From Patescibacteria group bacterium (GTDB lineage: Bacteria; Patescibacteriota; Microgenomatia; UBA8517), in contig JBBTZT010000003.1 in assembly GCA_038061225.1 (NCBI GenBank), forward strand, positions 113,092 to 177,091: 64,000 nucleotides of DNA, written 5' to 3'. The notes beneath the pieces were generated by a model that was not told where the DNA came from, ran no database searches, and worked only from the letters and a program-made list of their open reading frames with translations. Position numbers and translations under genes: made by a program. Positions within the stretch are counted from its first letter, which is position 1. Each line of letters starts with the position of its first letter. This document shows positions 6,816 to 35,494 of the stretch, piece after piece.

Positions 6816-7645
6816 TTGTTTAATTTAGTAAGTAATTTTTGCCACTTCTGACCTGACCATAATATCGCGTTGATTATAAAATGATTAATTAATCCATGAT
6901 ATATTTTGCTTGAAGGAATTAATCTCTTCCATCTTTCTGTTTCGTTTGCTAGTTTTTTAAATGTTGCTCCGTGGTAATGTGTGATTACTGATTCTGGAAG
7001 GTAATAGACTTTAAGTCCATTTTTCCAACATTGTCTACAGTAATCAATGTCTTCAAAATAGGCCCAATATCTTTCATCTAAAATGCCAACTTTTTCAATT
7101 GCCTTTGGGGTTATTAGAAACACAGCTCCTACAACTGAATCGACTGTGGTTGGTTTTCTGTCTCTGGGTGCAAATTTATCAAATAAACCTTTTTTACCAA
7201 GATAATATTCTAATATTGCATTCTTAATTGTAGGAAAATTAAAACAAGACATTTGAAGTGTTCCATCAATATTTAGAAGTTTGCTACCCACTACTCCCGC
7301 ATCAGGTGTTTTATCAGTAAATTCAACCAATGCATTTAATGAATCCTTGTATACAACTGTATCGTTATTCAGAAGTAAAACATATTTACCCTTAGCAAGT
7401 CTGATACCTTGATTATTTGCTTTGGCATAACCAGTATTGTTGTTATTGAATATTGCATGGAAATTATCATATTTTGCATCATATTTTTTCAACATCTCGA
7501 CAGAACCATCATTACTTCCATTATCAGTTATAAATACTTCAAATGGAAAGTTTAGTTTATATTTGTAAATTGATTTAATACAACCTTCAGTTAAATCAAT
7601 TGTGTTTAGATTAACAATTATTATGGATAATTTTATTTTATTCAT
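6812..7645 (-). CDS. GT2 family glycosyltransferase (start probably MNKIKLSIIIVNLN at 7645; the track ORF extends to 7672)
   Basis: LSIIIVNLN...FITDNGSNDGS...TGYAKANNQG...LLNNDT. Confidence 0.7.
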   Translation of the reverse strand: MNKIKLSIIIVNLNTIDLTEGCIKSIYKYKLNFPFEVFITDNGSNDGSVEMLKKYDAKYDNFHAIFNNNNTGYAKANNQGIRLAKGKYVLLLNNDTVVYKDSLNALVEFTDKTPDAGVVGSKLLNIDGTLQMSCFNFPTIKNAILEYYLGKKGLFDKFAPRDRKPTTVDSVVGAVFLITPKAIEKVGILDERYWAYFEDIDYCRQCWKNGLKVYYLPESVITHYHGATFKKLANETERWKRLIPSSKIYHGLINHFIINAILWSGQKWQKLLTKLNK

Positions 7646-11417: not shown

Positions 11418-12569
11418 TTAAAGAAATGGTGCCCAGTCAGATATTGGCATGGCGTTTTGGGAAATGAAAGCAAGCGAATATAAATATATAGGAATAATTA
11501 TGACAGCCATAGCTATTTTAAATTCCTTTTTGATCAAAGTTTCTCTAAATCCAAGTAACAAAAATGGAATAAGTGGTAATGAATATCTCATTAAATCTCT
11601 ATGTGTCACAAATAAAAGAGGAGTAAAGAATACAAGTGCAAAATAAAAATAAGTTGTGAGTTTTTCTTGGTATAATTTATATACGCCAAGGATTCCAATT
11701 AAATATATAAAGATAATTTCTTCAAGCCAAAATGTACCTACCCAAGGAGCGGAATAATTAAAGATTTGGAAAGGAGGAAAGAAAAGATGCATGTTATCAC
11801 CTGATTTAAAATAAACCCAAAAATCACCATATGTAATTTTGTAAAATGAAAATACTAAAAACACACCAAAAGGAATTAGTAGCAGTGGCAAATATTTTTT
11901 GTATTCTATATTTTTTAGGTTTTTAAGATAGGGAATAAAAATTTGAAGAAAGTAAGCTACAAACAGCAATATTGCAGGTGATTTAGTCATTTGAGCGAGC
12001 ATTCCCCACATGCCTGCTAGCCAATATTTTTTCTTTCCAAAAAAGAAAGTTGATGCGAGTATCGCGGCAATAAAAAATGGTTCAGCTGAGCCGACTGATC
12101 TAACAATTAACCATCTGGCAGGAAAAATCGCAAAAACAAAAGTTAGCCATAATGAGTCATTATTATTTAAGAATCTTCTTGCGTGTTTGTAGAAGAAAAA
12201 TAAGGCAAGTAAAGAACTTGAAATAGTTACAAAAAGCATCGAATATGGGCTACCAAAAATTGGTGAAAATATCTTTATAAATATTGGAAACATTGGAAAA
12301 TGAGCAGAATAATATTCATTTGTTAATGGGAATTGAAAGTTCTTAGCTATTAATTCAGGATTATATAAAGTTTTTTCAGCAACCATATAAAGTGGACCGT
12401 CAAAATTCGACACGACAGTGGCCATTCCACCATCAGGTAGAGGAATATTCCAAAACTTCTCGAACCTAGCAAAAAACGGCATCCAAATAAAAAAAGTAGG
12501 CACGATTGTTAACAATATTAGTGGGATCAATTTTTTAAATTTATTCACCATAGTTTGATAATACCACAA
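11418..12569 (-). CDS. Polytopic membrane protein, PIG-V/GT76-like mannosyltransferase family (paralog of 49791..50930)
   Basis: About 9-10 TM helices. Shared motifs NFDGxxY, FPLxxxY and FP(A/T)..Y.E with 49791. Confidence 0.4.
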   Translation of the reverse strand: MWYYQTMVNKFKKLIPLILLTIVPTFFIWMPFFARFEKFWNIPLPDGGMATVVSNFDGPLYMVAEKTLYNPELIAKNFQFPLTNEYYSAHFPMFPIFIKIFSPIFGSPYSMLFVTISSSLLALFFFYKHARRFLNNNDSLWLTFVFAIFPARWLIVRSVGSAEPFFIAAILASTFFFGKKKYWLAGMWGMLAQMTKSPAILLFVAYFLQIFIPYLKNLKNIEYKKYLPLLLIPFGVFLVFSFYKITYGDFWVYFKSGDNMHLFFPPFQIFNYSAPWVGTFWLEEIIFIYLIGILGVYKLYQEKLTTYFYFALVFFTPLLFVTHRDLMRYSLPLIPFLLLGFRETLIKKEFKIAMAVIIIPIYLYSLAFISQNAMPISDWAPFL

Positions 12570-12598
12570 TTAGGCTCATGTATGTTAGACTTTAAACT

Positions 12599-13297
12599 AT
12601 GGATTCCATTTCTATTTTTTTTCCTACCTATAACGAAGAAGCAAATATAAAAGAGACGATTTTAAAAGCCCTAGAGGTTTTAAAGAAGAATTTTAAAAAC
12701 TTTGAAATAATTGTTGTAAATGATGGGTCTAGGGACAAAACCAGAGAAATTATAGAAAAACTAGGAAAAGAAGATACAAGGATACGAATAATAAATCATA
12801 AGGAGAACAAGGGTTATGGTGCAAGCTTAAAATCAGGTTTTTATAATTGTCGATATGATTGGATTGCATTTACTGATTCTGACGGACAATTTGATTTTGG
12901 TGAGATTAGTGAATTTATTAATAAACAAGGTGAGACAAATGCAGATTTAGTAATTGGATATTATAAAAAAAGACAGGTAAGCAAATTCAAAATAATAACA
13001 TCTAAAATGTGGGAAATATCTGTAGAGATGCTTTTTGGATTACATGTACACGATATTGATTGTGGATTTAAGTTAATTTCAAAAAAAATTATTGATAAAA
13101 TTCCTAAGCTTGAAAGTGAAAGAGGAGCTTTTATTTCAAGTGAGTTTTTGATCAAATCAAAAAAAGCTGGATTTAAAATTGTAGAAATTCCTGTAACCCA
13201 CTATCCAAGATTACAAGGTAAAGGTACTGGAAGAGATTTAAGAGTTATAATTAAAAGTTTTCTAGATCTATTTCGCCTTTGGCGCAAACTTAAATGA
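12599..13297 (+). CDS. GT2 polyprenyl-phosphate glycosyltransferase (Dpm1-like, soluble catalytic domain)
   Basis: ISIFFPTYNEEANI...VVNDGSRDKT...NKGYGASL. Confidence 0.7.
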   Translation: MDSISIFFPTYNEEANIKETILKALEVLKKNFKNFEIIVVNDGSRDKTREIIEKLGKEDTRIRIINHKENKGYGASLKSGFYNCRYDWIAFTDSDGQFDFGEISEFINKQGETNADLVIGYYKKRQVSKFKIITSKMWEISVEMLFGLHVHDIDCGFKLISKKIIDKIPKLESERGAFISSEFLIKSKKAGFKIVEIPVTHYPRLQGKGTGRDLRVIIKSFLDLFRLWRKLK

Positions 13298-17256: not shown

Positions 17257-18746
17257 ACAATAAAGTAAAAATAATACTTTTTTCTATTCTGATATTATCG
17301 TTTTTATTACGCCTATATAACTTTAGATCTTATTACGTTTTTTCTCATGATCAAGATCTTGCTTCATGGATTATTAAAGACATTTTAGTAAATGGCCACT
17401 TAAGACTTATTGGTCAAGAAACATCTAGTCAGGGAGTTTTTATTGGGGCGCTTTTTTATTATCTCCAAATACCTTTTTATCTTTTTGGTAGAATGAGCCC
17501 GTTATCTGCTGTCTTTTTACCTGTAATTTTAGGAGTATTTGCAACATATAGTTTATTTTTTGTTTTTAGTAAAATTGCAAATATTAAATTAGGATTGATT
17601 GCTGCATTTATTTATGCAGTATCTGCTTTAATTGTTTTCGTTGATCGTGAGGTAGCTCCAACAATGCCTGTAATGCTATGGACAATGTGGTATTTATATA
17701 GTCTTTTCTTGATTTACAAAAGCAAGTATTTAAAGGGTTTTGTTTTAAATATCTTCTTAATTGGATTGATTTGGCATTTAAATCCTTCCTTAATTTTACT
17801 AACACCTTTAGTCTTAGTTGCGTTTTTGTTTTCTAAAAAGAAAATTGATAAAGTAACCATTTTCAATGTAAAAGCGATACTTATTGGATTTTTGGTTTTG
17901 TTTTTAACTAGTTTGCCTCTAATTTTCTTTGAGTTTAGACACGATTTTAGTCAGACAAAAGCAGTTATTTTATCGTTAACTACCAAGAAAGATTTTATTC
18001 AAGGCACTTCAACAGGTTTTGCAAAATTTGATAGAGTTATGCAACTTGTTAACAAAAATACCATTAGCATTTTTTCTAAACATCATTTCATTCACCCAAG
18101 TATAGTATTTATTTTGTTAATTAGTTTACTTTATTATTTTATTAAAATTAAAAAAATTAATTTATTTTTGTCTACCACATTTATTTTGTGGTTGGGACTC
18201 TATATTGTTTTTTTTAGTCTAAATTCTAAAAACCCTTCAGAATATTATTTTAATGGCATGAATATTATCTGGATTTTTATTGCTTCCTTAGGTCTTTTTG
18301 AACTTAAGAAAACAAAGGTAGGATTATTACTTTTTTATCTATTAACAATCTTGTTTTTTCTAGTAAATATAAATTATATATTTAAATATAACCCTGACAA
18401 AAAAGGATATATTGAAAAAGTTGATTTAGTAAAATATATAAATGCAGACAGGATAAAACGTGATTATCCTTGTATCTCGATATCTTATATAACAAATCCG
18501 GGGTACGATTTAGGTTATAGATATTTATTTTATTTAGAAAATATGCATGTAAATAGACCTATATCAAACTCTCCAGTTTATACCATAGTTTATCCACACA
18601 ATTTGGTTAATAGTATTGATAAAGCATTTGGATCTTTAGGGCTTATTTATCCTGATTATGACCGTTATAATAAAGAAGAAGTGGAAAAAAGTTATATTGG
18701 TGCAAATTCTAATTTAACTGATCCAATGTTTGGATACACTGAATAA
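17253..18746 (+). CDS. GT-C fold membrane glycosyltransferase, family A paralog 3
   Basis: SHDQDLASW motif; GxxxYY and FEFRHDF motifs shared with family A. Confidence 0.55.
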   Translation: MNNKVKIILFSILILSFLLRLYNFRSYYVFSHDQDLASWIIKDILVNGHLRLIGQETSSQGVFIGALFYYLQIPFYLFGRMSPLSAVFLPVILGVFATYSLFFVFSKIANIKLGLIAAFIYAVSALIVFVDREVAPTMPVMLWTMWYLYSLFLIYKSKYLKGFVLNIFLIGLIWHLNPSLILLTPLVLVAFLFSKKKIDKVTIFNVKAILIGFLVLFLTSLPLIFFEFRHDFSQTKAVILSLTTKKDFIQGTSTGFAKFDRVMQLVNKNTISIFSKHHFIHPSIVFILLISLLYYFIKIKKINLFLSTTFILWLGLYIVFFSLNSKNPSEYYFNGMNIIWIFIASLGLFELKKTKVGLLLFYLLTILFFLVNINYIFKYNPDKKGYIEKVDLVKYINADRIKRDYPCISISYITNPGYDLGYRYLFYLENMHVNRPISNSPVYTIVYPHNLVNSIDKAFGSLGLIYPDYDRYNKEEVEKSYIGANSNLTDPMFGYTE

Positions 18747-19494
18747 TATGAATATATCTATAATCATACCATCTTTTAATGAAGAAAATAATATAAGAAC
18801 GGGATCTCTTTCAGGGATAGTTGATTATTTAAATCAACAAAAATATAGATGGGAAATAATTGTAGTAGACGATGGGTCTAGTGATAAAACTGCAGAGCTA
18901 GCTGAAAAATTTGCTAAAAACCACAAAAATGTTGTTGTTCTGAGAGAACCTCATAGAGGAAAAGGTGGAACTGTTATTGCGGGAATGCTAAAAGCTAATG
19001 GAGATGTTGTTATTTTTGACGACATGGATCAAGCAACACCGATTGATCAATTAGAAAAAATATTACCAAAATTTTCAAATGGCTACGATATAGTTATTGG
19101 TTCAAGAGTGGGTAGAGAAGGTGCACCTTTAATCAGGAAAACAATGGCCTTAGGATTTTCTATCTTACGCAATTTAGTATTGCGACTTCCATATAAAGAT
19201 ACACAGTGTGGATTTAAAGCTTTTAAAAAGAAAGCATCTAATGAAATATTTAAACGTTTACAGATTTTTAATCAACAACAAGCACAATCTGGAGCTTCAG
19301 TTTCAGCAGGATTTGATCTTGAAATATTATATGTTGCCAGAAAATTAAAATTAAAGGTGGCGGAAGTTCCTGTCGTTTGGCATCACAAAGAAGGAACTAA
19401 AGTTAATCCAATTAAAGATAGTTGGGAAGGTCTAAGAGATCTAATGAAAGTAAGACTAAATGCTATTCAAGGAAAATATAATTTAAGGAGATGA
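18730..19494 (+). CDS. GT2 polyprenyl-phosphate glycosyltransferase (Dpm1/GtrB-like)
   Basis: ISIIIPSFNEENNI...VVDDGSSDKT...FDDMDQATP...GFKAF. Confidence 0.7.
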   Translation: MDTLNNMNISIIIPSFNEENNIRTGSLSGIVDYLNQQKYRWEIIVVDDGSSDKTAELAEKFAKNHKNVVVLREPHRGKGGTVIAGMLKANGDVVIFDDMDQATPIDQLEKILPKFSNGYDIVIGSRVGREGAPLIRKTMALGFSILRNLVLRLPYKDTQCGFKAFKKKASNEIFKRLQIFNQQQAQSGASVSAGFDLEILYVARKLKLKVAEVPVVWHHKEGTKVNPIKDSWEGLRDLMKVRLNAIQGKYNLRR

Positions 19495-20321
19495 AAACTA
19501 AATCTTCAAAAATAGTTTTGTTCAAAGATCAAAAAATTAGACGTGATTGGAATAAAAAAGAACAAAAATGGTATTTTTCTGTTATTGATATCGTAGGAGT
19601 TTTAAGCAAAAGTACCAGCACTCAGGCATATTGGCGCAAGTTGAAGGAAAGGTTAAAAGCTGAAGGTAGCGAAACCGTGACAAAATGTCACGGTTTGAAA
19701 ATGAAAGCGATTGACGGAAAAATGAGGTTAACAGACGTGGCAGATACTGAAACAATGCTTAGATTAATCCAATCAATACCATCACCTAACGCTGAGCCTT
19801 TTAAATTATGGCTTGCGAGAGTTGGTTATGAAAGAATTGAAGAAACTGAAGATCCAGAAAAAGGAATTCAACGAGCATTGTCTACATATCTTAAAAAAGG
19901 ATATTCCAAATCATGGGTTGATCTAAGGCTTAAAAGTATAGAAATTAGAAAAGATTTAACTAATGAGTGGGATGAAAGAGGTGTTAGTAACTCAAAAGAA
20001 TATGCAATATTAACTGACGATATTACCTTTGCATGGGCGGGACTTCGAACAAAAGATTACAAAGATTATAAAAATTTAAAAAAAGAAAATTTGCGGGACA
20101 ATATGACTAATTTGGAGTTAGTTTTAAATATGTTAGCAGAGACAGCAACTACAGAAATTTCAAAAACTAAAAAACCTGATACTTTTTATAAAAATAGAAT
20201 TGTTGCCAAAGAAGGAGGGGATATTGCGGGAAGAGCAAGAAAACAAATTGAAGTCAAAAGCGGTAGAAAAGTGGTCAGTAAATATCGTTTTGGCGAAAAA
20301 AGAGATAAACTATTAAAATGA
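19491..20321 (+). CDS. Bro-N domain protein (phage antirepressor / DinD-like)
   Basis: N-terminal Bro-N signature (F....iR.....WYFSVIDIVGVL...ESGLY-type, LIQSIPSPNAEPFKLWLARV). ATGA coupling on both sides. Confidence 0.55.
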   Translation: MKTKSSKIVLFKDQKIRRDWNKKEQKWYFSVIDIVGVLSKSTSTQAYWRKLKERLKAEGSETVTKCHGLKMKAIDGKMRLTDVADTETMLRLIQSIPSPNAEPFKLWLARVGYERIEETEDPEKGIQRALSTYLKKGYSKSWVDLRLKSIEIRKDLTNEWDERGVSNSKEYAILTDDITFAWAGLRTKDYKDYKNLKKENLRDNMTNLELVLNMLAETATTEISKTKKPDTFYKNRIVAKEGGDIAGRARKQIEVKSGRKVVSKYRFGEKRDKLLK

Positions 20322-21841
20322 ACTTTAGGAAAATCTTTAAGGAGTGGAAGTGGACGATATTTGGATTGGTTATTATTTTGATGATTGGTTTAGTAATAAG
20401 AATCGTAAACTTAACGATTCTTCCGATTTTTGTTGATGAGGCAATCTACGTTAGATGGGCACAAGTCATGGCTATTGAGCCAACCTTAAGATTTTTACCT
20501 TTATCAGATGGTAAGCAACCTCTTTATATGTGGATTTTGATGTTTTTAATTAAATATTTTTCCGATCCCTTATTTATTGGACGTTTAGTATCGGTTATGA
20601 CGGGTATGGGAACTGCCGTGGGCGTGTTTGTGTTTAGTTATGTTTTATTTAAAAACAAATTTGTTTCTTTAATTTCTTTATTACTTTATATCTTGTCACC
20701 ATTCATTTTTTTCTTTGACAGAATGGCTTTAGTTGATTCAATGTTATCAATGTTTGGTATTTGGACAGCTATTTTTTCTTTTTTGACTGCAAAATATAAA
20801 CGACTTGATCTTGCAATGATAGCTGGATTTATGTTGGGGTTTGCTGCTTTAACCAAATCTCCTGCCATGTTTACTGCCTTATTGTTACCAAGTTTTTGGG
20901 CTTTAACAAATTGGAAAGGTATTTGGAGGTTGGGAGTTACTTATTTTATAGCTTTTGTGATGTATAACATTCAAAGATTGGGTCCAAATTTTGGACAATT
21001 AAGTGCCAGAACTGGTGATTATATCTTACCGATTAGCCATATTTGGACAAGGTTTTTCGATCCACTCTTACCACATTTAAAAGATTTTGTGGTCTGGTTA
21101 TCAAGCATGGGACCAGTTGCACTAATACCTCTTGTTTTGCTTGGTATATTTTTAGGATTTAAAAAATATTTTAAACAAACACTTGTTCTTGTTGTTTGGG
21201 GGCTATTTCCAGTTTTTATTCAAGCAGAACTGGGTCTAACTTTTACTGCTAGGTATGTATTTTTTACATTGCCTTATTTATTTATTTTGGCAGGAATGTC
21301 CTTTTTAATACAAATTAAATGGTTGCGAGTTACGATTCATGGGTTACTGGCTTTTTTTGTAATTCAAAGTATCATATTTGATTATTATCTTTTAACTAAC
21401 CCTGAAAAAGCTAATTTACCAAGAGGTGAAAGATCTGGGTATTTAGAGGAGTGGACTGCAGGACAAGGAATCAAAGAAGTATCTCTTTATATAAGAAAAG
21501 AAGAATTAAAAGATAAAGGTAAGCAAATTGTTGTTGGAACTGAAGGTTATTTTGGAACATTACCAGATGGATTACAGTTATATTTAAATGATTTGCCAAA
21601 TGTGATAGTTATTGGTGTTGGAGTTATTATTGATGATACTCCTAAGAGTTTAAAAGAAGCAGTCAAAGCAGGAAATAAAACTTATTTAGTTATTAATAAA
21701 TCAAGGTATAAAGGTAAAGCAGAAGAACAAGGCCTAAAACTTATAGCAAAATATCCAAAAGGATTAAGACTAACAGATTCAAGGCAATATGTAATAAATG
21801 GCCCACAAGAAGAACTTCTCTTCTTCGAACTCACAAAATGA
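20318..21841 (+). CDS. GT-C membrane glycosyltransferase, ArnT/PMT (GT39/GT83)-like singleton
   Basis: IFVDEAIYVRWAQ first periplasmic loop (classic DE motif); about 11 TMs. Confidence 0.6.
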   Translation: MNFRKIFKEWKWTIFGLVIILMIGLVIRIVNLTILPIFVDEAIYVRWAQVMAIEPTLRFLPLSDGKQPLYMWILMFLIKYFSDPLFIGRLVSVMTGMGTAVGVFVFSYVLFKNKFVSLISLLLYILSPFIFFFDRMALVDSMLSMFGIWTAIFSFLTAKYKRLDLAMIAGFMLGFAALTKSPAMFTALLLPSFWALTNWKGIWRLGVTYFIAFVMYNIQRLGPNFGQLSARTGDYILPISHIWTRFFDPLLPHLKDFVVWLSSMGPVALIPLVLLGIFLGFKKYFKQTLVLVVWGLFPVFIQAELGLTFTARYVFFTLPYLFILAGMSFLIQIKWLRVTIHGLLAFFVIQSIIFDYYLLTNPEKANLPRGERSGYLEEWTAGQGIKEVSLYIRKEELKDKGKQIVVGTEGYFGTLPDGLQLYLNDLPNVIVIGVGVIIDDTPKSLKEAVKAGNKTYLVINKSRYKGKAEEQGLKLIAKYPKGLRLTDSRQYVINGPQEELLFFELTK

Positions 21842-21854
21842 TACAATTTAAATT

Positions 21855-23330
21855 GTGGAAGAAGAAATTGGAATAGAAACAATAGGAATAGAGACCATAA
21901 AGCAAAGATCTGTTCGTGGAGTTGTTATTTTAACTGGTAGAACTTTTTTACTTCAAATTATTGGTCTTGTTGCACAATTTTTTCTATTTGCCTATCTTGG
22001 TGGTTATGAATTTGGAGTTTTTGCAATTATTTCTGCAATCATTAATTTTCTAGTTTATTTTTCTGATATTGGACTAGCTGCAGCTTTAATTCAGAAAAAA
22101 GAAACTCCAACTGATACAGATTTAAAAACAACTTTCTTTGTTCAACAAATATTAATTTTCACAATAATTGGAATTGTTTTTTTACTAACCCCTTTCTTTG
22201 TCCAAAAATATTCACTAACCTATGATGGTCAAATACTTTTATACGCATTATCTTTATCCCTTGTCTTTTCATCTCTTAAAAGTATTCCTTCAGTACTTTT
22301 GGAAAGAAAATTGGAGTTTATTAAATTAGTTTTTCCCCAAATTTTAGAACAAATTGTTTATAACGTAGTTTTGGTATTTTTTGCCATGAAGGGTTTTGGT
22401 TTAAAAAGTTTTACTATTGCAGTAATTTTAAGGGGAATTATAGGACTTGTTGCAATTTATGCACTTCAACCATGGAAACCTGGAATTGCCTTTTCCTTAA
22501 ATACTCTAAAAGGATTATTTAAATTTGGTATTCCATATCAAATTAATACATTTTTAGCAACGCTAAAAGATGATGGAATGACGATTGTGTTAGGAGGAAT
22601 AATCGGTCCAGTTGGAGTTGGAATATTATCATTTGCTCAGAAGTTAGCGAGGCTTCCGTTAACATTTTTTATGGATACGGTAACACGTGTGACTTTCCCT
22701 GCATTTTCAAGAATGCAAGATCACAAGAATGATTTAGAAAGAAGTGTTACAAGATCAATATTTTTCATTTGTCTTTTTGTTTTTCCAAGTTTAATGGGAA
22801 TAATTATACTTTCTCCATTGTTAGTTCGTGTTGTTCCAAGATATGAACAATGGATACCAGCACTTATCCCAATTATATTTATCTCAATAAATTTTGCTTT
22901 TGCCAGTGCTACAACACAACTTACTAATCTTTTAAATGCGATTGGCAAAATTAAAATAACATTTTATTTAATGATAATGTGGACTGTTTTATCTTGGACT
23001 TTTATTCCATTTTTAGCTCTAAAATTTGGAGTATTGGGAGCATCAATTGGTTATGCTTTAGTTGGGTCATCATCTCTAATTGCGATATATATAGCTAAGA
23101 AGTATGTAAACTTTGGAGTTATCGATTCAATGATCAAGCCATTGATTGGATCAGTTGTTATGGGGGTAGTCTTGATTTTTGTACGTAAATTTTTGGATAT
23201 TAGTGTGAATTCAATGCTTATTCTAAGTTTAGTTGGTGTATTAGTTTATGGTTCGTCAATGATTTCTATGATGGGTGTTTCTTTAATAGAAGATGCTAAA
23301 AAAAGTTACAAAACAATTTTCTCTCGTTAG
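21855..23330 (+). CDS. Wzx/MOP-superfamily polysaccharide flippase (GTG start inferred)
   Basis: 14 predicted TMs. The N-terminal RGVVILTGRTFLLQIIG pattern is typical of polysaccharide biosynthesis/flippase proteins. Confidence 0.6.
   Translation: MEEEIGIETIGIETIKQRSVRGVVILTGRTFLLQIIGLVAQFFLFAYLGGYEFGVFAIISAIINFLVYFSDIGLAAALIQKKETPTDTDLKTTFFVQQILIFTIIGIVFLLTPFFVQKYSLTYDGQILLYALSLSLVFSSLKSIPSVLLERKLEFIKLVFPQILEQIVYNVVLVFFAMKGFGLKSFTIAVILRGIIGLVAIYALQPWKPGIAFSLNTLKGLFKFGIPYQINTFLATLKDDGMTIVLGGIIGPVGVGILSFAQKLARLPLTFFMDTVTRVTFPAFSRMQDHKNDLERSVTRSIFFICLFVFPSLMGIIILSPLLVRVVPRYEQWIPALIPIIFISINFAFASATTQLTNLLNAIGKIKITFYLMIMWTVLSWTFIPFLALKFGVLGASIGYALVGSSSLIAIYIAKKYVNFGVIDSMIKPLIGSVVMGVVLIFVRKFLDISVNSMLILSLVGVLVYGSSMISMMGVSLIEDAKKSYKTIFSR
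21869..21898. repeat. 15-bp tandem repeat GGAATAGARACMATA x2 at the 5' end of the flippase ORF
   Basis: 12/15 identity between units; encodes IGIETIGIETI. Confidence 0.8.
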
Positions 23331-25014
23331 CCTAATAATAATTGGAACTATCACATGGTCTTTGACTATGGTAAGAAGTGGACTGCTTTATAAATTTGGT
23401 TATGGATTTTGGGGACCAAATGGCCATGATGGTATTTGGCACATAGCTCTTTCTAATAGTCTTTCTAAAGGAACTTTAGAAAATCCAATTTTTTCTGGTT
23501 CTTTGTTGCAGAATTATCACCTTGGTTTTGATCTGCTCTTAGCTTTGTTAAATAAATTAACAACAATTCCTATTAGTATTTTGTATTTCCAGATTCTGCC
23601 TCCTATTTTCGCTTTAATGATTGGTTTACTAGTATATTTATTTGTTTTAAATTGGAGAGGATCTAAAAATGAAGCACTATGGTCTACAGCCTTTGTTTAT
23701 TTTAGTTCATCGTTTGGATTTATTATTACATTTTTAAGAGATAGAGTTATCACAGGTGAGTCAATGTTTTGGTCACAACAATCTATCTCTACTTTAGTTA
23801 ATCCTCCTTTCGCACTATCTCTAATATTTATTTTATCTGCTCTTATCTCTTTACAAAAAAAGAATTTATTTTTTAGTATTATATTTTTTGGAATATTAAT
23901 TCAAATTAAAGCTTATGCCGCTATTCTTGTTCTTGCTGGTTTGTTTATCTCTGGTCTGTATTCATACATCTTCCATCATAAATCTTACATCTTAAAAGTC
24001 TTTCTTGCTTCACTTTTTTTAAATTTAATTTTGTTTGTGACAACAAGGAGTGACGGCTTGTCAACGTTTGTTTGGCAACCTATGTGGTTTTTAGAAACTT
24101 TAATGTCCTATTCAGATAGATTTGGTTGGGAAAGGCTTTATTCTGCAATGACAACTTATAAAATGGGGCATATTTGGTTTAAAGAAATTTTGGCATATTC
24201 ATTAGCTTTTGCAATTTTTATACTGGGTAATATGGGAGTGCGTATTATTGGATTTTATTATTTTTTAAAAGTACTTAAAAATAAAATCAAAATTGATGAA
24301 ATTTTAGTATTTATTACTACTATTTTGTTAATGGCGATTATAATTCCAATGTTTTTAGTTCAAAAAGGTACGCCTTGGAATACTATTCAATTTTTCTATT
24401 ATTATTTATTCTTTTCCTCAATTTTTGCAGGTATATCTATGGATTTACTTACAAACAATAAAAAACGAATAGTTAGAGTTGGTTTAATGACTTTATTTTC
24501 TATGTTTACAATATTTGGAGCATGGTCTACCTTGCAACATTATTTACCTAAAATGCCACAATCTATGGTCTCAAATGAAGAATATGCCGCCTTAGATTTT
24601 TTGACTAAACAAACAGATGGAATAATTTTTACTTATCCATTTGATGAGAGTAAAGCCATTTTAGCTACTAAAAACCCTCCTCGTCCACTTTATTTCTATG
24701 AATCAACATCATATGTATCAGCTTTTACTCATAAACCAGTATTTCTTGAAGATCAGGTAAACTTAAACATCATGGGCTATAGCTGGGAGAATCGCAGAGA
24801 ACAGACGTTGTGGTTTATCTTAAACCTTGATAAAGAGGCGGGTAGAGAGTTTTTGGGTCGCAATAATATAAAATATTTGTATTTAGTTAAAGAAGCTTCA
24901 CCTCTTTTTGGAGAGCTACTTAGGTTAGGTTCGGCTGAATTAGATCTAAAGAAGATTTTTGAAAATAAAAAAAGTATAATATACCAATATGGCAAAGATT
25001 TCGGTAGTAATTAA
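23293..25014 (+). CDS. Polytopic membrane protein with C-terminal extracytoplasmic domain, family E paralog 1 (uncharacterised; possibly a polymerase/ligase-like GT-C)
   Basis: Motifs GHDGIWHIAL and ENPIFSGSLLQNYH shared with 38446..40281 (-). Confidence 0.5.
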   Translation: MLKKVTKQFSLVSLIIIGTITWSLTMVRSGLLYKFGYGFWGPNGHDGIWHIALSNSLSKGTLENPIFSGSLLQNYHLGFDLLLALLNKLTTIPISILYFQILPPIFALMIGLLVYLFVLNWRGSKNEALWSTAFVYFSSSFGFIITFLRDRVITGESMFWSQQSISTLVNPPFALSLIFILSALISLQKKNLFFSIIFFGILIQIKAYAAILVLAGLFISGLYSYIFHHKSYILKVFLASLFLNLILFVTTRSDGLSTFVWQPMWFLETLMSYSDRFGWERLYSAMTTYKMGHIWFKEILAYSLAFAIFILGNMGVRIIGFYYFLKVLKNKIKIDEILVFITTILLMAIIIPMFLVQKGTPWNTIQFFYYYLFFSSIFAGISMDLLTNNKKRIVRVGLMTLFSMFTIFGAWSTLQHYLPKMPQSMVSNEEYAALDFLTKQTDGIIFTYPFDESKAILATKNPPRPLYFYESTSYVSAFTHKPVFLEDQVNLNIMGYSWENRREQTLWFILNLDKEAGREFLGRNNIKYLYLVKEASPLFGELLRLGSAELDLKKIFENKKSIIYQYGKDFGSN

Positions 25015-26598: not shown

Positions 26599-27599
26599 AT
26601 ACTTTAGGTGGGGGAGAACGTTACAGTTTAACCTTTGCTAAAGTATTAGCGGAAATTGGGTTTGACGTTGATATTGAATGGAAAGATAAATCAATAAAAG
26701 AAAAACTCTCGAAAAGATTTGGATTAAAATTGCCAAATAATATTAATGTTGTTGATAATATCAATCGCGGGGAAGGTTATGATATTTGTTTTTGGGTAAC
26801 AGATGGTAGCATTCCCACTTTGAGATCGAGAAGAAATTATCTTCACTTCCAAGTTCCATTTCATGATGTCAATGGAACATCGTTGCTAAATAAAATGAAG
26901 TTATTTAGAATAGAAAAAATAATTTGTAATTCTTACTTTACCAAAACAATAGTTGACAAAGAGTATGGAGTAAATTCTATTGTTCTTTATCCACCCGTTG
27001 CTACGGATTTGTATAAAGCAAAAAGAAAAATTGAGCAGATTTGTTATGTCAGTCGTTTTTCTGAATTAACACAAAATAAAGGGCATGACATTTTAATTAA
27101 ACAATTTAAATTATTAGTTAAAGACAAAAAGTTTAAAGAATGGAAATTAGTTTTAGCAGGCGGGACTGAAATAGGTTCAACTGATTATCTTAAAAGACTA
27201 AAGAAAATGAGCAGTGGATATAATATAGAATTTGTAGAAAGTCCTACGGTAGATATTTTAAAAAATATATTTGGCAAATCAAAAATATTTTGGTCTGGTT
27301 CAGGGTTTAGTGAGAATGAAGTTAAAAATCCTGAAAGAGTGGAACATTTTGGAATTACACTAGTTGAGTCGATGTCCGCAGGATGTGTTCCTGTCGTATA
27401 TAAGGCAGGTGGATATAAAGAAATTATTGATAATAGTAAAAATGGATTTTTATGGAATGATAAAAAAGATCTTTTAGAATTAACTAAAAAAACAGTAAAA
27501 GAAAAAGGATTATTAAAAACAATTTCTAAAAATGCGATTGACTCGTCAAAAAAATATAGCTATGAAACATTTAAAAATGAAATCAGAAAAATTATATAG
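26565..27599 (+). CDS. GT4 family glycosyltransferase
   Basis: E-x7-E motif FGITLVESMSAGCVPVV. Confidence 0.65.
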   Translation: MGKAAIYNPYLDTLGGGERYSLTFAKVLAEIGFDVDIEWKDKSIKEKLSKRFGLKLPNNINVVDNINRGEGYDICFWVTDGSIPTLRSRRNYLHFQVPFHDVNGTSLLNKMKLFRIEKIICNSYFTKTIVDKEYGVNSIVLYPPVATDLYKAKRKIEQICYVSRFSELTQNKGHDILIKQFKLLVKDKKFKEWKLVLAGGTEIGSTDYLKRLKKMSSGYNIEFVESPTVDILKNIFGKSKIFWSGSGFSENEVKNPERVEHFGITLVESMSAGCVPVVYKAGGYKEIIDNSKNGFLWNDKKDLLELTKKTVKEKGLLKTISKNAIDSSKKYSYETFKNEIRKII

Positions 27600-29124
27600 T
27601 GTCTTATCAATTGCAATATTTGTAATTGCATTTTTTTTAAGGGTAATGTTTTTGCAAAATAACGCATTAACTTTTGGATATGACCAAGCACGAGATGCAT
27701 TAATTGCTAAGCAAATCATTTCAGGAGATATTAAAATACAAGGACCACCATCTTCAGCTCCGGGGCTTTATCATGGCGTTTTTTATTATTACTTATTAGC
27801 ACCAGCTTATCTAATAGGTCACGGAAGCCCTATTGTTGTGGCTTATTATTTAGCTTTTTTAAATTCACTTACTGTTTTTATTGTTTTTTTTACAGCGAAG
27901 CTGGCCACGAAGAATTCGTGGATTGCACTTTTGTCAGCATCTTTATACGCTATTTCATTTGAATCAACTCAATACGCAACATGGCTTAGCAATCCAACAA
28001 TCGCGGTCTGGACAGTCCCTTTAATGTATTTAGGCTTATGGATTTGGATTTTATCAATAAAACAAAAGAAATTAATAGTCGGTCCAATTTTAGCAGCAAT
28101 TGGATTGGGTCTTTCCATACAAGCGGAAATATTTCTTGCCTATCATATTGTTCCTCTTCTGATATGGTTGGCGATTTACAACAAAAATATTACTAAAAAA
28201 AGTTTATATTATTTTTTTGGATTTTTAATCTTTGTAACCTTTAGTCTTATTCTCTGCGAGTTTAAATTTGGTTTTAATAGTTTAACTGCTATAAAATCAC
28301 TAGCTACAACAAGCGGGGGGAATTTGGCATATGCAAAATCTGTTGGTGATTATTTAATTCTTTATTTAAATCAAGTGGGTCGTATTTTTGCCTTTAATAC
28401 TTACCCTGGGAATATTGGATATGGTGGTGGAGTAATAATTATACTTGGGATATATTCACTTTTAAATTACACACATAGCTTCGCTGCCAAAAAAAATCCA
28501 TACCCTGCATTTTTAGCAGTTTGGCTATTTTCTCATCTATCTGTTGTTACTGTTGGCGGAATGTCAACCCCCTTTTTAATGGTTGGAATTGGACCAGCAA
28601 TATCTTTGATGTTGGGTTTTTATATATATAAATTATTTAATAAAAAGAGAATTTTTGCTATTTTAATTTTTTTAATAATATTTTATGGAAATTTAAATTT
28701 TATTCTTTCTCAGAATAAATTAGGGTCAACTCTTTTTTCTATACAAAAAGACATGCTTCTTTCAAAACAAATTGATGCGATTGACTATACATATCAATTA
28801 GCCGACGGAAAACCATTTAGCATTAGTAGTCTGACATCTCCTCTTTGGATAAATATTGTTTGGACATATTTATATAAATGGTATGGGGTGAATACTTACG
28901 GATATGCCCCTTATTGGCATGGTAAGGATCAAATAGGACAGCTTGATAGTTTAGAGAGAATTGACAATCCCTTTGATACATCATTTCTAATACTTGAGCC
29001 TATGGCAGGCATACCTGTTAGATATTTGTCAGAAACAATTGCTGAGGAAGATGTCGATACCAAAATGGTTGAAGAAAAATCCTTCGGAGAAATAATAGTT
29101 CAAAAAAGAATAAAAATTTTTTAA
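27577..29124 (+). CDS. GT-C fold membrane glycosyltransferase, family A paralog 4
   Basis: GYDQARDALIAKQI, GxxYYYL; paralog of 13294/15757/17253. Confidence 0.55.
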   Translation: MKSEKLYSVLSIAIFVIAFFLRVMFLQNNALTFGYDQARDALIAKQIISGDIKIQGPPSSAPGLYHGVFYYYLLAPAYLIGHGSPIVVAYYLAFLNSLTVFIVFFTAKLATKNSWIALLSASLYAISFESTQYATWLSNPTIAVWTVPLMYLGLWIWILSIKQKKLIVGPILAAIGLGLSIQAEIFLAYHIVPLLIWLAIYNKNITKKSLYYFFGFLIFVTFSLILCEFKFGFNSLTAIKSLATTSGGNLAYAKSVGDYLILYLNQVGRIFAFNTYPGNIGYGGGVIIILGIYSLLNYTHSFAAKKNPYPAFLAVWLFSHLSVVTVGGMSTPFLMVGIGPAISLMLGFYIYKLFNKKRIFAILIFLIIFYGNLNFILSQNKLGSTLFSIQKDMLLSKQIDAIDYTYQLADGKPFSISSLTSPLWINIVWTYLYKWYGVNTYGYAPYWHGKDQIGQLDSLERIDNPFDTSFLILEPMAGIPVRYLSETIAEEDVDTKMVEEKSFGEIIVQKRIKIF

Positions 29125-32319: not shown

Positions 32320-33896
32320 ATAAGCATTGGATTGTTGTCATTATTTTTATTCTTGGACTTTCTGTCTCACAGCCTTTGATGAAAACTGGTTATTTCTCAC
32401 ATCAGGACGACTTGCAAGTAATGAGAATTTTTGAAATGAGAAAATGTTTTTCTGATTTTCAAATTCCCTGCAGGTGGGTTCCAGATATGGGTTGGGGAAA
32501 TGGTTTTCCTCTTTTTAACTTTTACGGTCCGTTTACATATTATTTAGGAGCAGTAGTTAGTTATGTTTTAGGATATCTAAATTCTGCAAAATTATTATTT
32601 TTTACAACACTAATTGTAGGAAGTTTTGGAGTATATTTATTAGTCAGAGAATTGTGGGGAAAGTATGCTGGATTAACTGCAGCTAGTTTGTATCTATTTG
32701 CTCCCTATAAAGCATTGGATATATATGTACGCGGCGCACTTTCGGAAAGTATGGCGCTTGCAATAATTCCTTTTGTTTTTTACTTTCTTCAAAAGAAAAA
32801 TTATAAACTTTTTACAGTTAGCTTATTTTTCTTTTTAATAACACACAACATAATGACTGTTATTTTTGTTCCAGTTGTTGTTCTTTGGGGGATTTATGTT
32901 TTATTTCTAAATAAGTTTAATAACTTAAAATTTGTTTTGCTATCGTTTATAATAGCCTTTGGCTTAGCTTCCTTTTTTATCTTACCGGCTTTTTTTGAAA
33001 AAAATTTAGTGCAGACTCAAAGTTTAACTAGATTTGAACTTGATTTTAGAGCTAATTTTATTAGTATAAAGCAATTATTTTTTGATAGAGTTTGGGGATA
33101 TGGTACATCAATTCCAGGACCAGAGGGTGGGATGAATTTTTCTATTGGTTGGCCACATTGGTGGCTAGTTTTACTGTCAACTTTTGCATTACTTTTTGTG
33201 AAAGACAAAAAGAGCATTCTACTTGCTCTATTCTACATACTACTATTCTTGTTCTCCATATTCATGACTCACAACAAGTCCTCGTTCATTTGGGAAAATA
33301 TAAGTATTTTAACTTTTTTCCAATTTCCTTGGAGGTTTTTATCATTATCTATATTAACTTCTTCTATTTTGGGAGGTTTTGTAATATCTTTATTTAGGGA
33401 AAAATTACAAATATATGCAAGTTTATTTATTATATTAATTACTGTTTTTTTAAATTGGAGTTATTTTAAGCCAAGAGAATTTTACGAGGTTACAGAGAAA
33501 GAGAAGATGACTGGAGAACTTTGGGAATATCAAAGAAAAGGTGCAATATTAGATTATTTACCAAAAACAGCACTTGAGCCGAGAGAGGGTGCAAATACAA
33601 CTTTGTCAAATTTCCAAAGTTATTCAAATAAATTTTCATTCGAAATTAATCTTGATAAAGAAACTCAAATTGAAATCCCTATTTTTTATTTTCCAAATTG
33701 GGAAGTAACAGTTGACGGTGAAAAATATTTAGTATCACACGATAATATTTTAGGTAGAATTTCAGTTTTAGTTCCCGAAGGTTATCACAAAATTGTAGGT
33801 AATTTCAAAAATACTGTAATTAGAACATTTGCTAATTATTTAACTTTAGTTAGTTTTTTTAGCTTAATTTATATATGGAGAAAACACAAAAACTAA
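32304..33896 (+). CDS. Family B paralog 2
   Basis: FSHQDDLQVM, PCRWVPD, VRGALSES. Confidence 0.5.
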   Translation: MVKFLNKHWIVVIIFILGLSVSQPLMKTGYFSHQDDLQVMRIFEMRKCFSDFQIPCRWVPDMGWGNGFPLFNFYGPFTYYLGAVVSYVLGYLNSAKLLFFTTLIVGSFGVYLLVRELWGKYAGLTAASLYLFAPYKALDIYVRGALSESMALAIIPFVFYFLQKKNYKLFTVSLFFFLITHNIMTVIFVPVVVLWGIYVLFLNKFNNLKFVLLSFIIAFGLASFFILPAFFEKNLVQTQSLTRFELDFRANFISIKQLFFDRVWGYGTSIPGPEGGMNFSIGWPHWWLVLLSTFALLFVKDKKSILLALFYILLFLFSIFMTHNKSSFIWENISILTFFQFPWRFLSLSILTSSILGGFVISLFREKLQIYASLFIILITVFLNWSYFKPREFYEVTEKEKMTGELWEYQRKGAILDYLPKTALEPREGANTTLSNFQSYSNKFSFEINLDKETQIEIPIFYFPNWEVTVDGEKYLVSHDNILGRISVLVPEGYHKIVGNFKNTVIRTFANYLTLVSFFSLIYIWRKHKN

Positions 33897-35494
33897 TATC
33901 TAAATATCTTGTTTTAATAATATTATCACTTTCTATTCCTGCTGTTAGATATTTTTTTGTGTATGGTTATTTTGGTGTTTCAGATGATTTGCACATTGGT
34001 TGGCTTTTTGAAATGGATAGAGTAATTAAAATGTTGCAATTTCCTCCAAGATACGTTCCAGATTTGTCTTTTGGTTTTGGTTATCCTCTTTTTAATTTTG
34101 TTTATCCATTACCTTTTTATATAGCTGAGTTTTTTCATTTAGTAGGTTTCTCGCTAGTTAATAGTGTCAAACTTGTTTTTGGTCTTTCGATTCCATTTTC
34201 AATGTTTTTTGCTTACAAGCTATTAAAACACTATTTATCAGAAGGGCTGTCACTTGCTGGAGCTACTCTATATGTATACGCTCCATATAGGGCTTTGGAG
34301 ATCTTTGTAAGAGGAACGATAGGGGAGATAGTTGCCTTTGTATTTTTCCCAATAATTCTTTATAGCGTAATCAAAAAGAAGCCATATTTTTTAGCTTTAT
34401 CTTTTGCTGGCCTTATTCTGTCGCACAATATTATGGCTTATATGTTCATGCCATTTTTATTGGTATTTATTATCGCTAATAAATCATTTATGGTTTCTTT
34501 AAAAGGAATATTATTAGGACTATTGTGTTCAATCTACTTTTGGTTTCCTGCGCTTTTAGAAAGCAAATTAATGAAATATGATACTGTTTTTAACTTTTAT
34601 GATCACTACCCTACTTTAAAACAATTTATTACTCCATATTGGGGTTATGGAGCTTCAGTTGCTGGTAATTACGATACCATGTCTTTTTATATGGGCATAA
34701 CAGGGCTGGTGGTGGTAGGTGTGGGTTTAATTTTATTTTTCTTAAATTTAAAAAAGTTTTCAAAAGAAGAAAAAATATTCATTGGTTGGGGAGCTCTGGT
34801 ATTTTTTATATCTATTTTTATGATGAACTTTCGTTCAGCATTTTTATGGAGGAGCATTCCCCTTTTGCCGTATTTCCAATTTCCATGGAGATTTTTGGCA
34901 ATGACAACATTTGTTAGTCCTATTTTTTTACTTTGTTTTACAAAGTTTAAAAATCAAAAGATCTTGAGCCTAATTTCTTTTCTTGTTATATTTTTTGCGA
35001 TAGTTTTAAATTTCAATTACTTTAAAACCAGTGAGTATCTTGGTCGTGGTGATGATTATTATTTAAATAGATATATACCTTCTTTATCAGTTAGTGAAGC
35101 TTACAAACAAACTTTAGAAGAATATTTAAGATTACCAAAGGATACCAAGATAAGACCTAATAAACTTTATCCTAGAGCATACACAGATGATCTGGAAGTA
35201 ACTCTTCAAATTGAAGAAGAAAATGCACTCAATGCAAAAATAACAACAGATAGTAAAACTGATTTTAATCTAAATTATAATAAATATTATTATCCAGGAT
35301 TTATTGCAAAAATTGATGGCAATAGGGTACAAATTAGTGCCGGAGAACCATTTGGGCAAATTTCATTTACAGTACCTAGTGGTAAACATGAGGTAATTGT
35401 TTTATATAAAGAATCATCTTTTAGATTAATCTTTGATATAATTTCACTAGGGGCAATAGTTACTTCGATTTATTTAATAATGAAAAATAGATGA
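33875..35494 (+). CDS. Family B paralog 3
   Basis: GVSDDLHIGW, PPRYVPD, VRGTIGE. Confidence 0.5.
   Translation: MEKTQKLISKYLVLIILSLSIPAVRYFFVYGYFGVSDDLHIGWLFEMDRVIKMLQFPPRYVPDLSFGFGYPLFNFVYPLPFYIAEFFHLVGFSLVNSVKLVFGLSIPFSMFFAYKLLKHYLSEGLSLAGATLYVYAPYRALEIFVRGTIGEIVAFVFFPIILYSVIKKKPYFLALSFAGLILSHNIMAYMFMPFLLVFIIANKSFMVSLKGILLGLLCSIYFWFPALLESKLMKYDTVFNFYDHYPTLKQFITPYWGYGASVAGNYDTMSFYMGITGLVVVGVGLILFFLNLKKFSKEEKIFIGWGALVFFISIFMMNFRSAFLWRSIPLLPYFQFPWRFLAMTTFVSPIFLLCFTKFKNQKILSLISFLVIFFAIVLNFNYFKTSEYLGRGDDYYLNRYIPSLSVSEAYKQTLEEYLRLPKDTKIRPNKLYPRAYTDDLEVTLQIEEENALNAKITTDSKTDFNLNYNKYYYPGFIAKIDGNRVQISAGEPFGQISFTVPSGKHEVIVLYKESSFRLIFDIISLGAIVTSIYLIMKNR

Follow-up and report, generated by a model that had tools for sequence, protein, structure and literature searches.

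A Bro-N gene inherited with a glycosylation operon in Woesebacteria-like Patescibacteria

We found that a Bro-N gene lying inside a cell-envelope glycosylation operon was gained once by the ancestor of a Woesebacteria-like clade, just upstream of a GT-C gene, and was then inherited with the locus. The gene occupies 19491..20321 on the + strand of the window, by which we mean the whole 64,000-nucleotide stretch of patescibacterial DNA that was analysed. It is an ORF with an ATG start that encodes a DinD-like protein of 276 aa, belonging to the PADLOC PDC-S13 family and to PHROG 15286. The explanation we prefer overall, with moderate confidence, is that of a cellular two-domain DinD-like protein that is a long-standing resident of the operon and acts on DNA. 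Most likely the gene product is a DNA-binding passenger that is expressed through the operon and is not a glycosylation factor. It is a new member of the BRO family, PDC-S13 and DinD-like group, and the kind of operon that hosts it, glycosylation, is also new.

Results

The Bro-N gene is joined to both of its neighbours with no spacer DNA at either junction. Its ATG (19491-19493) overlaps the TGA (19492-19494) of the upstream GT2 glycosyltransferase gene, forming an ATGA at 19491..19494, and its TGA (20319-20321) overlaps the ATG (20318-20320) of the downstream gene in a second ATGA at 20318..20321, with all of these features on the + strand. The upstream gene (18730..19494) matches Pfam Glycos_transf_2 (E 9e-31) and in the public gene call starts at 18748 and encodes 248 aa. 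The downstream gene (20318..21841) encodes a 507-aa membrane glycosyltransferase of the GT-C type (Pfam PMT, E 4.5e-8; PMT_2, E 7.8e-7). The Bro-N gene sits in a long, co-directional array that contains GT2 genes, a DHH phosphoesterase, a Wzx-type flippase, methyltransferases and at least nine GT-C-type paralogues (PMT_2, PTPS_related, GT87). A repeat scan around the gene returned no credible flanking direct or inverted repeats, only short matches at chance level. An earlier note on this DNA had described this layout, with ATGA overlaps on both sides, no spacer or repeats, a GT2 gene upstream and a GT-C gene downstream, and the description was borne out in every part. We also found no recombination site or terminal repeats at the ends of the window copy, and promoter-like and terminator-like sites were no commoner around the gene than in shuffled sequence and in fact fewer, which makes that scan uninformative.

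The composition of the gene is native to its surroundings. Its G+C content is 0.326, with a window mean of 30%, its GC3 is 0.224 compared with 0.205 ± 0.036 in the window, and its codon usage is ordinary, ranking 27th of the 55 window genes. Contigs from Hainich groundwater metagenomes that carry a Patescibacteria annotation encode a protein identical to the window copy, and among named genomes Candidatus Woesebacteria bacterium GW2011_GWF1_31_35 (CP011214.1) comes closest. Since the 276-aa protein matches PHROG 15286 over its full length (E 2e-113) and PADLOC PDLC04920, the PDC-S13 profile, at E 5.7e-124 (aa 4-269 against profile positions 3-268 of 286), and since more than 8000 close homologues were scored, the ORF at 19491..20321 is not a chance reading frame.

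The earlier note had also proposed that the protein carries a Bro-N domain, and the HMM match on which that proposal turned was found: the match to Pfam Bro-N (PF02498) reaches 36.7 bits, above the gathering threshold of 25.6, and covers aa 20-109 and profile positions 6-91 of 96. A KilA-C domain, which the same note had suggested might accompany it, was not found. Pfam searches of aa 111-276 at E up to 1 gave only noise, with no ANT/KilA-C, ORF6C or T5orf172 nuclease domain, and the C-terminal module lies outside every Pfam model in this range. Pfam likewise recognised no effector domain (nuclease, NADase or pore) in the protein, no enzymatic mobility domain was found in it, and sequence searches of PDB chains, both with the single sequence and with a profile, gave no match. 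Some longer family members are fused to an LMW phosphatase, a reverse transcriptase, a Na/H antiporter, an acyltransferase, HTH_3 or ORF6N. Reading function from these fusions was considered and dropped, as the partners are unrelated and inconsistent and look like chimeric or read-through gene calls.

The C-terminal module is related to that of E. coli DinD. By BLASTP the window protein is 30% identical over 80 aa to DinD aa 145-222 (E 2e-5). Aligning a broad family profile (A3) with a DinD profile (A4) by hhalign gave a probability of 87.5% (E 3.5e-6, 103 columns), pairing aa 154-259 of the window protein with DinD 145-249 in colinear order; an earlier hhalign comparison that used a narrow profile (A2) had reached a probability of only 15%. 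The NCBIfam DinD equivalog (NF008573) matches at 23.7 bits over aa 143-226 only and does not reach its curated cutoff of 242. The DinD-like nature claimed by the earlier note is upheld by the equivalog and hhalign matches. Judged by these alignments, the protein has the plan of the DinD-like superfamily, a Bro-N domain with a homologous C-terminal module. Given an equivalog score of 23.7 against a cutoff of 242, it is classed from its sequence as a distant DinD paralogue and not an orthologue.

We built an AlphaFold2 model from an 80-sequence alignment (pLDDT 79, pTM 0.54). The Bro-N domain (aa 20-109; 19548..19817, + strand) is basic and is modelled as alpha/beta and winged-helix-like, with the N-terminal alpha/beta domain of the model extending over aa 11-112; its predicted fold fits the winged-helix-like KilA-N/APSES type. 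It is followed by a conserved acidic linker (aa 113-126; 19827..19868, + strand), YERIEETEDPEKGI, with a net charge of -4 and pLDDT below 50. Among 80 homologues this linker is nearly invariant, and E114, R115, E118, D121, P122 and E123 are the invariant residues. The helical C-terminal module (aa 122-257; 19854..20261, + strand), which carries the DinD homology, is predicted as helices with pLDDT 80-97. The protein as a whole is strongly basic (net charge +21, pI 9.8), with both domains basic (+9 in the Bro-N domain) and the linker acidic.

The fold comparison covered PDB and BFVD. Using Foldseek with the AlphaFold2 model, six chains of DdrC were significant (E 1e-4 to 4e-3, probability 1.0) and all others had E >1. 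The structure search against viral models gave E 3e-5 or worse, at 11-17% identity, and returned assorted Bro-N, KilA-N and antirepressor proteins. A profile search of PDB chains detected no sequence similarity between the Bro-N/DinD-like family and DdrC. Since there is no sequence signal, the link to DdrC would hold at the level of predicted fold only.

The Bro-N gene is present at the same locus in all ten clade members examined (the window, L005/L014, L008/L016, L010-L012, L013, L015, L017, L099, L100 and L102). In these genomes it lies between a GT2 gene and the GT-C gene of the 500-aa class that precedes the flippase, and in some of them one or two additional genes separate it from the GT2 gene. 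The downstream ATGA junction is kept in seven of the eight relatives in which it could be read (L013, L015, L016, L010/L011, L099, L100 and L102). The exception is L014, in which an additional adh_short gene follows the Bro-N gene and there is no ATGA with the GT-C gene. In L017 the contig ends, with the same ATGA still visible. In a neighbour-joining tree of 107 family members, the syntenic copies group with the 30-odd best database hits in a single clade, separate from all other CPR and Bacteroidota copies. This steady pairing of the Bro-N and GT-C genes across the clade may mean a functional tie.

Divergence of the Bro-N gene is in step with that of its neighbours. Between the window and its closest relative, L013, dS is 0.69 for the Bro-N gene and 0.53, 0.82 and 0.58 for the GT2, GT-C and flippase genes, and against the other relatives dS is saturated for the Bro-N gene and flanking genes alike. 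The dN/dS ratio is 0.07-0.15 for the Bro-N gene and 0.06-0.29 for the flanking genes. A gene that diverges alongside its neighbours and stays under purifying selection is not newly inserted, nor is it a remnant in decay. Selection acts on the protein sequence itself, so the gene is more than a spacer held open for translation.

When JGI metagenomes were scanned with the GT-C protein encoded downstream, five loci from four lineages (L093, L094, L095/L096 and L097) were recovered, all without the Bro-N gene. In all five the GT-C gene directly follows either the GT2 gene or the GT2 gene plus one PMT gene. The comparison of orthologous loci that the earlier note had suggested therefore has a divided outcome, the ten clade members having the gene at the site and four related lineages being without it.

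One of these lineages is close enough to a carrier for the change to be read exactly. On either side of the site, L016, a complete Woesebacteria genome that carries the gene, and L094, which does not, share about 91% DNA identity. The blastn alignment breaks at 7013 and 7828 in L016, corresponding to 3705 and 3696 in L094, and the difference amounts to 824 nt, exactly the ORF minus the 4-nt overlap. This indel is bounded by ATGAAAAAAA and ATGAAGAAAA, which are the starts of the Bro-N and GT-C genes and both encode Met-Lys-Lys, so that its boundaries are two 10-nt start-codon repeats, ATGAA(A/G)AAAA. In a flippase tree L094 is the sister of L016 (100/100 bootstraps), and the pair is nested among carriers. 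Since the tree places L094 inside the carriers, the gene was lost secondarily and cleanly in this line, and hence at least once in the clade. A single ancestral gain followed by this loss in the L094 line is the simplest history, and the loss could have come about by slippage between the 10-nt repeats or by homologous exchange with an empty allele. As a natural experiment the pair is clean: carrier and non-carrier share 91% identity, and the ORF is all that separates them.

Beyond this clade the family is large and widely spread. In a search of 1.84 billion cluster representatives, a limit of E ≤ 1e-3 gave 14,138 clusters and a limit of E ≤ 1e-30 gave 1,661, which puts the family at about 14,000 clusters (50% identity). 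GTDB species genomes contain 204 relatives, and the best 80 of the 204 are 62-86% identical to the window protein. The hosts of these 80 include Woesebacteria, Saccharibacteria, many Parcubacteria lineages, WWE3, Elusimicrobiota and a Woesearchaeota archaeon, together with Bacteroidales, Chitinophaga, Clostridia, Cloacimonadota, Armatimonadota, Ignavibacteria and a Bathymodiolus endosymbiont. Relatives were also found on 24 plasmid records, mostly large non-mobilizable replicons. The Bro-N/DinD-like subfamily is a cellular one, with 62-86% identity kept from CPR bacteria to Bacteroidota and DPANN archaea.

No neighbouring gene is constant among these copies. Outside the glycosylation clade, 143 immediate neighbours in 75 loci match 188 Pfam families, none of which occurs in more than four loci, and Glycos_transf_2 accounts for two of the 143. 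Some tightly nested copies are found within defence operons: that of L023 is flanked by a DNA methylase and a type III res subunit, that of L034 lies between an SNF2/PLD helicase and an Eco57I-type methylase in a DISARM/BREX-like operon, and that of L090 lies upstream of HsdS; further copies adjoin a T2SS-F gene or a DUF2779 gene. Of the CPR-type copies, 28 of 40 have same-strand genes on both sides, and in 17 of 41 a neighbour lies ≤25 nt away on one side or both. For Bacteroidota-type copies, which stand by themselves, the median gaps are 201 and 146 nt.

As a separate observation, the Bacteroidota copies lie in units of about 1.07 kb that have palindromic, attC-like repeats at their ends. 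The end repeats were assessed by local alignment with shuffled controls. The putative upstream attC-like element in L087 folded no better than shuffles (z +0.5), and because of this the attC reading of the Bacteroidota units is only half supported.

Discussion

Our data point to a gene that is inherited with its operon and encodes a protein that probably acts on DNA. The family is very large and highly conserved, and its members are stand-alone proteins in which an acidic linker joins an N-terminal, winged-helix-like Bro-N domain to a C-terminal module that is helical, basic and shared with E. coli DinD. From the arrangement of the window locus, the gene probably lacks a promoter of its own and would be expressed by termination-reinitiation at the two ATGA junctions. 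Being, as we infer, both promoterless and translationally coupled, it would ride on the operon. An inexact deletion would have polar effects on the GT-C gene and those after it, which may explain why only an ORF-exact loss is seen. We place the activity of the protein on DNA because of its basic charge, its Bro-N domain, its homology to DinD and its DdrC-like predicted fold; action on glycans is disfavoured because the family has no association with glycosylation elsewhere. The protein is probably a dimer that would bind DNA through both of its basic domains. Its targets would be unusual DNA, such as breaks, invading DNA, recombination intermediates or RecA-bound duplex, and by analogy its mode of action would resemble those of DdrC, which bridges nicks and ends, and DinD, which strips RecA from duplex DNA. 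The benefit to the cell could be control of repair or recombination, or defence against phage.

On a first alternative the protein would be a single-gene anti-phage defence system, a PDC-S13 candidate, which senses phage DNA or protein and halts infection, and the operon would only supply its expression. The full-length match to PDLC04920 speaks for it. PDC candidates were chosen for nesting in BREX, DISARM or type I RM operons, and three relatives of the window protein (L023, L034 and L090) are nested likewise; the wide horizontal spread, with 62-86% identity across phyla, would suit a defence gene. However, most of the neighbours in the 75 loci are housekeeping genes, and no effector domain was recognised. 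Stable vertical descent and even purifying selection over saturated dS are also unusual for defence genes, which turn over fast. We therefore consider dedicated defence unlikely, although it is the best placed of the alternatives.

A second alternative is that the gene is a selfish passenger cassette, inserted exactly between genes and protected by a coupling that makes inexact loss harmful, with little benefit to the host. The ORF-exact indel between L016 and L094 is what such a cassette would leave. The frequent nesting of CPR-type copies (28/40 same-strand; 17/41 with a gap ≤25 nt), the ~1.07 kb Bacteroidota units with palindromic attC-like ends and the lack of constant neighbours also fit it. 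Against this, a dN/dS of about 0.1 shows selection on the protein sequence that goes beyond keeping a frame open. The window copy has no recombination sites, the protein has no mobility enzyme domain, and the clade pattern is one gain plus loss with no repeated gains. Purely selfish maintenance is accordingly improbable.

The earlier note had raised the possibility of a co-opted DNA-binding regulator. In favour of a transcription factor that regulates the glycosylation operon are the DNA-binding fold of Bro-N and the retention of the same GT-C neighbour throughout the clade. Against it, the gene sits in the middle of the operon with no promoter region adjoining it, the same operon is intact in relatives without the gene, and the family is not associated with glycosylation genes elsewhere, with Glycos_transf_2 in only two of 143 neighbours outside the clade. 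A regulator of this operon is thus very unlikely.

In 50,697 GenBank phage records searched by tblastn there were four weak or short matches, each to an unannotated faecal 'Bacteriophage sp.' fragment of 4-7 kb. No relatives turned up in IMG/VR when it was scanned with peptide patterns of the window protein, and no phage genes lie within 10 kb on either side of the Bro-N gene. The earlier note's view of the gene as a hallmark prophage gene and possible remnant of a phage insertion, an antirepressor left from a decayed phage, is suggested by the frequency of Bro-N domains in phage antirepressors and by the weak structural matches to viral Bro-N and KilA-N proteins (11-17% identity), but it is contradicted by the near absence of the subfamily from phage collections, a locus free of phage genes, att sites and repeats, the lack of an ANT/KilA-C domain, native composition, flank-like divergence, and inheritance with the locus under purifying selection, so that it is effectively excluded. 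The case separates having a Bro-N domain from being derived from phage.

The gene can be compared with several known systems. Phage Bro-N antirepressors and the Bro-N/T5orf172 homing-type nucleases (for example ICP1 Odn and PLE CapR; PMC8263062, PMC8096241) have the N-terminal Bro-N domain, which binds DNA or protein, in common with the window protein. Their C-terminal module differs, and the window gene lies outside any phage or satellite.

PDC-S13 is one of 145 PADLOC candidates, picked because their members occur nested within operons of the BREX, DISARM or type I RM kind (Payne et al., bioRxiv 10.1101/2024.01.29.577857), and a literature search found no paper that mentions it by name. The window gene has a full-length HMM match to PDC-S13 and the same nested, co-oriented habit. 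The host of the window gene is a glycosylation operon and not a BREX, DISARM or RM operon, and no defence-system neighbour was found at the window locus, where the neighbours are glycosyltransferases, a DHH protein and a flippase. Because the same embedding is seen in an operon not devoted to defence, the argument of guilt by embedding is weakened for the PDC-S13 family.

DdrC of Deinococcus radiodurans (PDB 7QVB, 7UDI and 8U0G) is the sole solved structure that resembles the predicted fold of the window protein. It is a domain-swapped dimer that binds nicks and double-strand ends, bridges both and compacts DNA (PMC9303277, PMC11347143). The same papers state that homologues outside Deinococcus are absent, and they do not mention Bro-N or DinD. 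Any likeness would lie in a two-domain fold, with a winged-helix N-terminal domain and a helical-bundle C-terminal domain, and the comparison is between a predicted monomer of the window protein and a domain-swapped crystal dimer. TM-scores against the model are low (0.35-0.50) because the orientations of the domains differ. The N-terminal domain of DdrC is acidic, whereas the Bro-N domain here is basic (+9).

E. coli DinD (b3645; NCBIfam NF008573) is close to the window protein in length, with 274 aa compared with 276 aa, and also has Bro-N at its N-terminus (aa 10-105, Pfam 32.4 bits), giving the same order of domains. It is a stand-alone gene as well. The DinD family, like that of the window protein, is highly conserved, with 74-84% identity across distant taxa. 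DinD and the window protein are only about 25-30% identical over some 100 residues. DinD is SOS-regulated from its own promoter, whereas the window gene lies inside an operon with no space for a promoter. According to Uranga 2011, as cited in PMC10602874 and PMC4849656, DinD is SOS-induced and inhibits or removes RecA filaments, an activity known for E. coli DinD only.

These comparisons allow a wider and distinctly speculative proposal, which we think unlikely as a whole. The Bro-N/DinD-like family, DinD and DdrC, supposedly confined to Deinococcus, could form one pan-prokaryotic superfamily that binds DNA breaks or foreign DNA and is carried as minimal one-gene cassettes, as attC-like units of ~1.07 kb in Bacteroidota and as ORF-exact, translationally coupled inserts in streamlined CPR genomes. 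The window copy would then be one that became fixed, with its coupling to an essential envelope operon guarding it against loss. For the window protein itself, two activities that can be assayed, the binding of nicks and ends and the removal of RecA filaments, are suggested by its links to DdrC in fold and to DinD in sequence.

The Bro-N gene within the glycosylation array

The Bro-N gene of the window (19491-20321, + strand) lies in a co-directional array of about 34 kb (window 12599-46287, + strand), a very large portion of a small CPR genome. We counted nine or more paralogous membrane glycosyltransferases of the GT-C type in this array (PMT_2, PTPS_related and GT87), together with several GT2 genes, one GT1 gene, a Wzx-type flippase and methyltransferases. 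Several of its membrane proteins of 530-575 aa (23293-25014, 27532-29124 and 33875-35494) gave no Pfam match.

A perfect AAGGAG (window 19485-19490) abuts the ATG of the Bro-N gene. At zero spacing, this motif lies too near the start codon to support a normal Shine-Dalgarno interaction. The start of the downstream GT-C gene has no AAGGAG-type motif. The zero-spaced motif at one start and the motif-free start at the other are consistent with translation by reinitiation rather than independent initiation.

The corresponding GT-C gene was compared in two near-identical contigs of same-clade carriers. In the public gene calls for one of them (L010:6965-8345) the gene 3′ of the Bro-N gene is broken into a short minus-strand ORF and a 272-aa ORF, while in the other (L011:6828-8345) it is intact at 505 aa. 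Our own ORF call recovered the intact 505-aa frame in both contigs. The split in L010 therefore probably reflects a gene-calling difference rather than a pseudogene.

Family copies in other lineages

In candidate division WWE3, two genomes each carry two family copies on opposite strands about 5 kb apart (L032:6977-7828 and 12395-13225; L051:6427-7278 and 11655-12485). In Bacteroidota copies (L036, L039, L071 and L080) a conserved 15-nt inverted repeat, TCTTTGGAATTGAAA / TTTCAAGACCAAAGA, flanks the start codon, its arms separated by 36-37 nt (for example L036:6974-6988 and 7025-7039). This repeat may act as an operator, or it may fold into a hairpin that masks the start codon.

Among the Bacteroidota and Cloacimonadota relatives considered (L087, L083, L086, L074, L068 and L091), the conserved unit is more than the ORF alone. 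About 95 nt of conserved DNA, containing a Bacteroidetes-type -7 box (TATCTTTG), precede the family gene, and inverted ends delimit the unit, with GTTAGCTTTCATTG on the upstream side and CAACGAAAAGCTAAC directly after the stop codon. Direct repeats lie on either side of the unit; they are 52 nt long with a spacing of 1066 in one locus (L087:2073-3190) and 144 nt long with a spacing of 1076 in another (L083:1977-3196), and in both loci the repeats end in GTTAGC. Folding gave a long, imperfectly paired hairpin for the downstream element (z -3.3) and a poor fold for the element upstream in L087. The unit resembles an integron-type gene cassette that carries attC-like sites.

Comparison with DinD

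True DinD, represented by the E. coli protein (L098:2761-3582; homologues P0271-P0390), is unusually conserved, with 74-84% identity between E. coli and Aeromonas, Pseudomonas, Limnobacter and a Chlorobiaceae MAG. DinD and the subfamily of the window show the same pattern, in which high conservation is combined with a wide, patchy spread.
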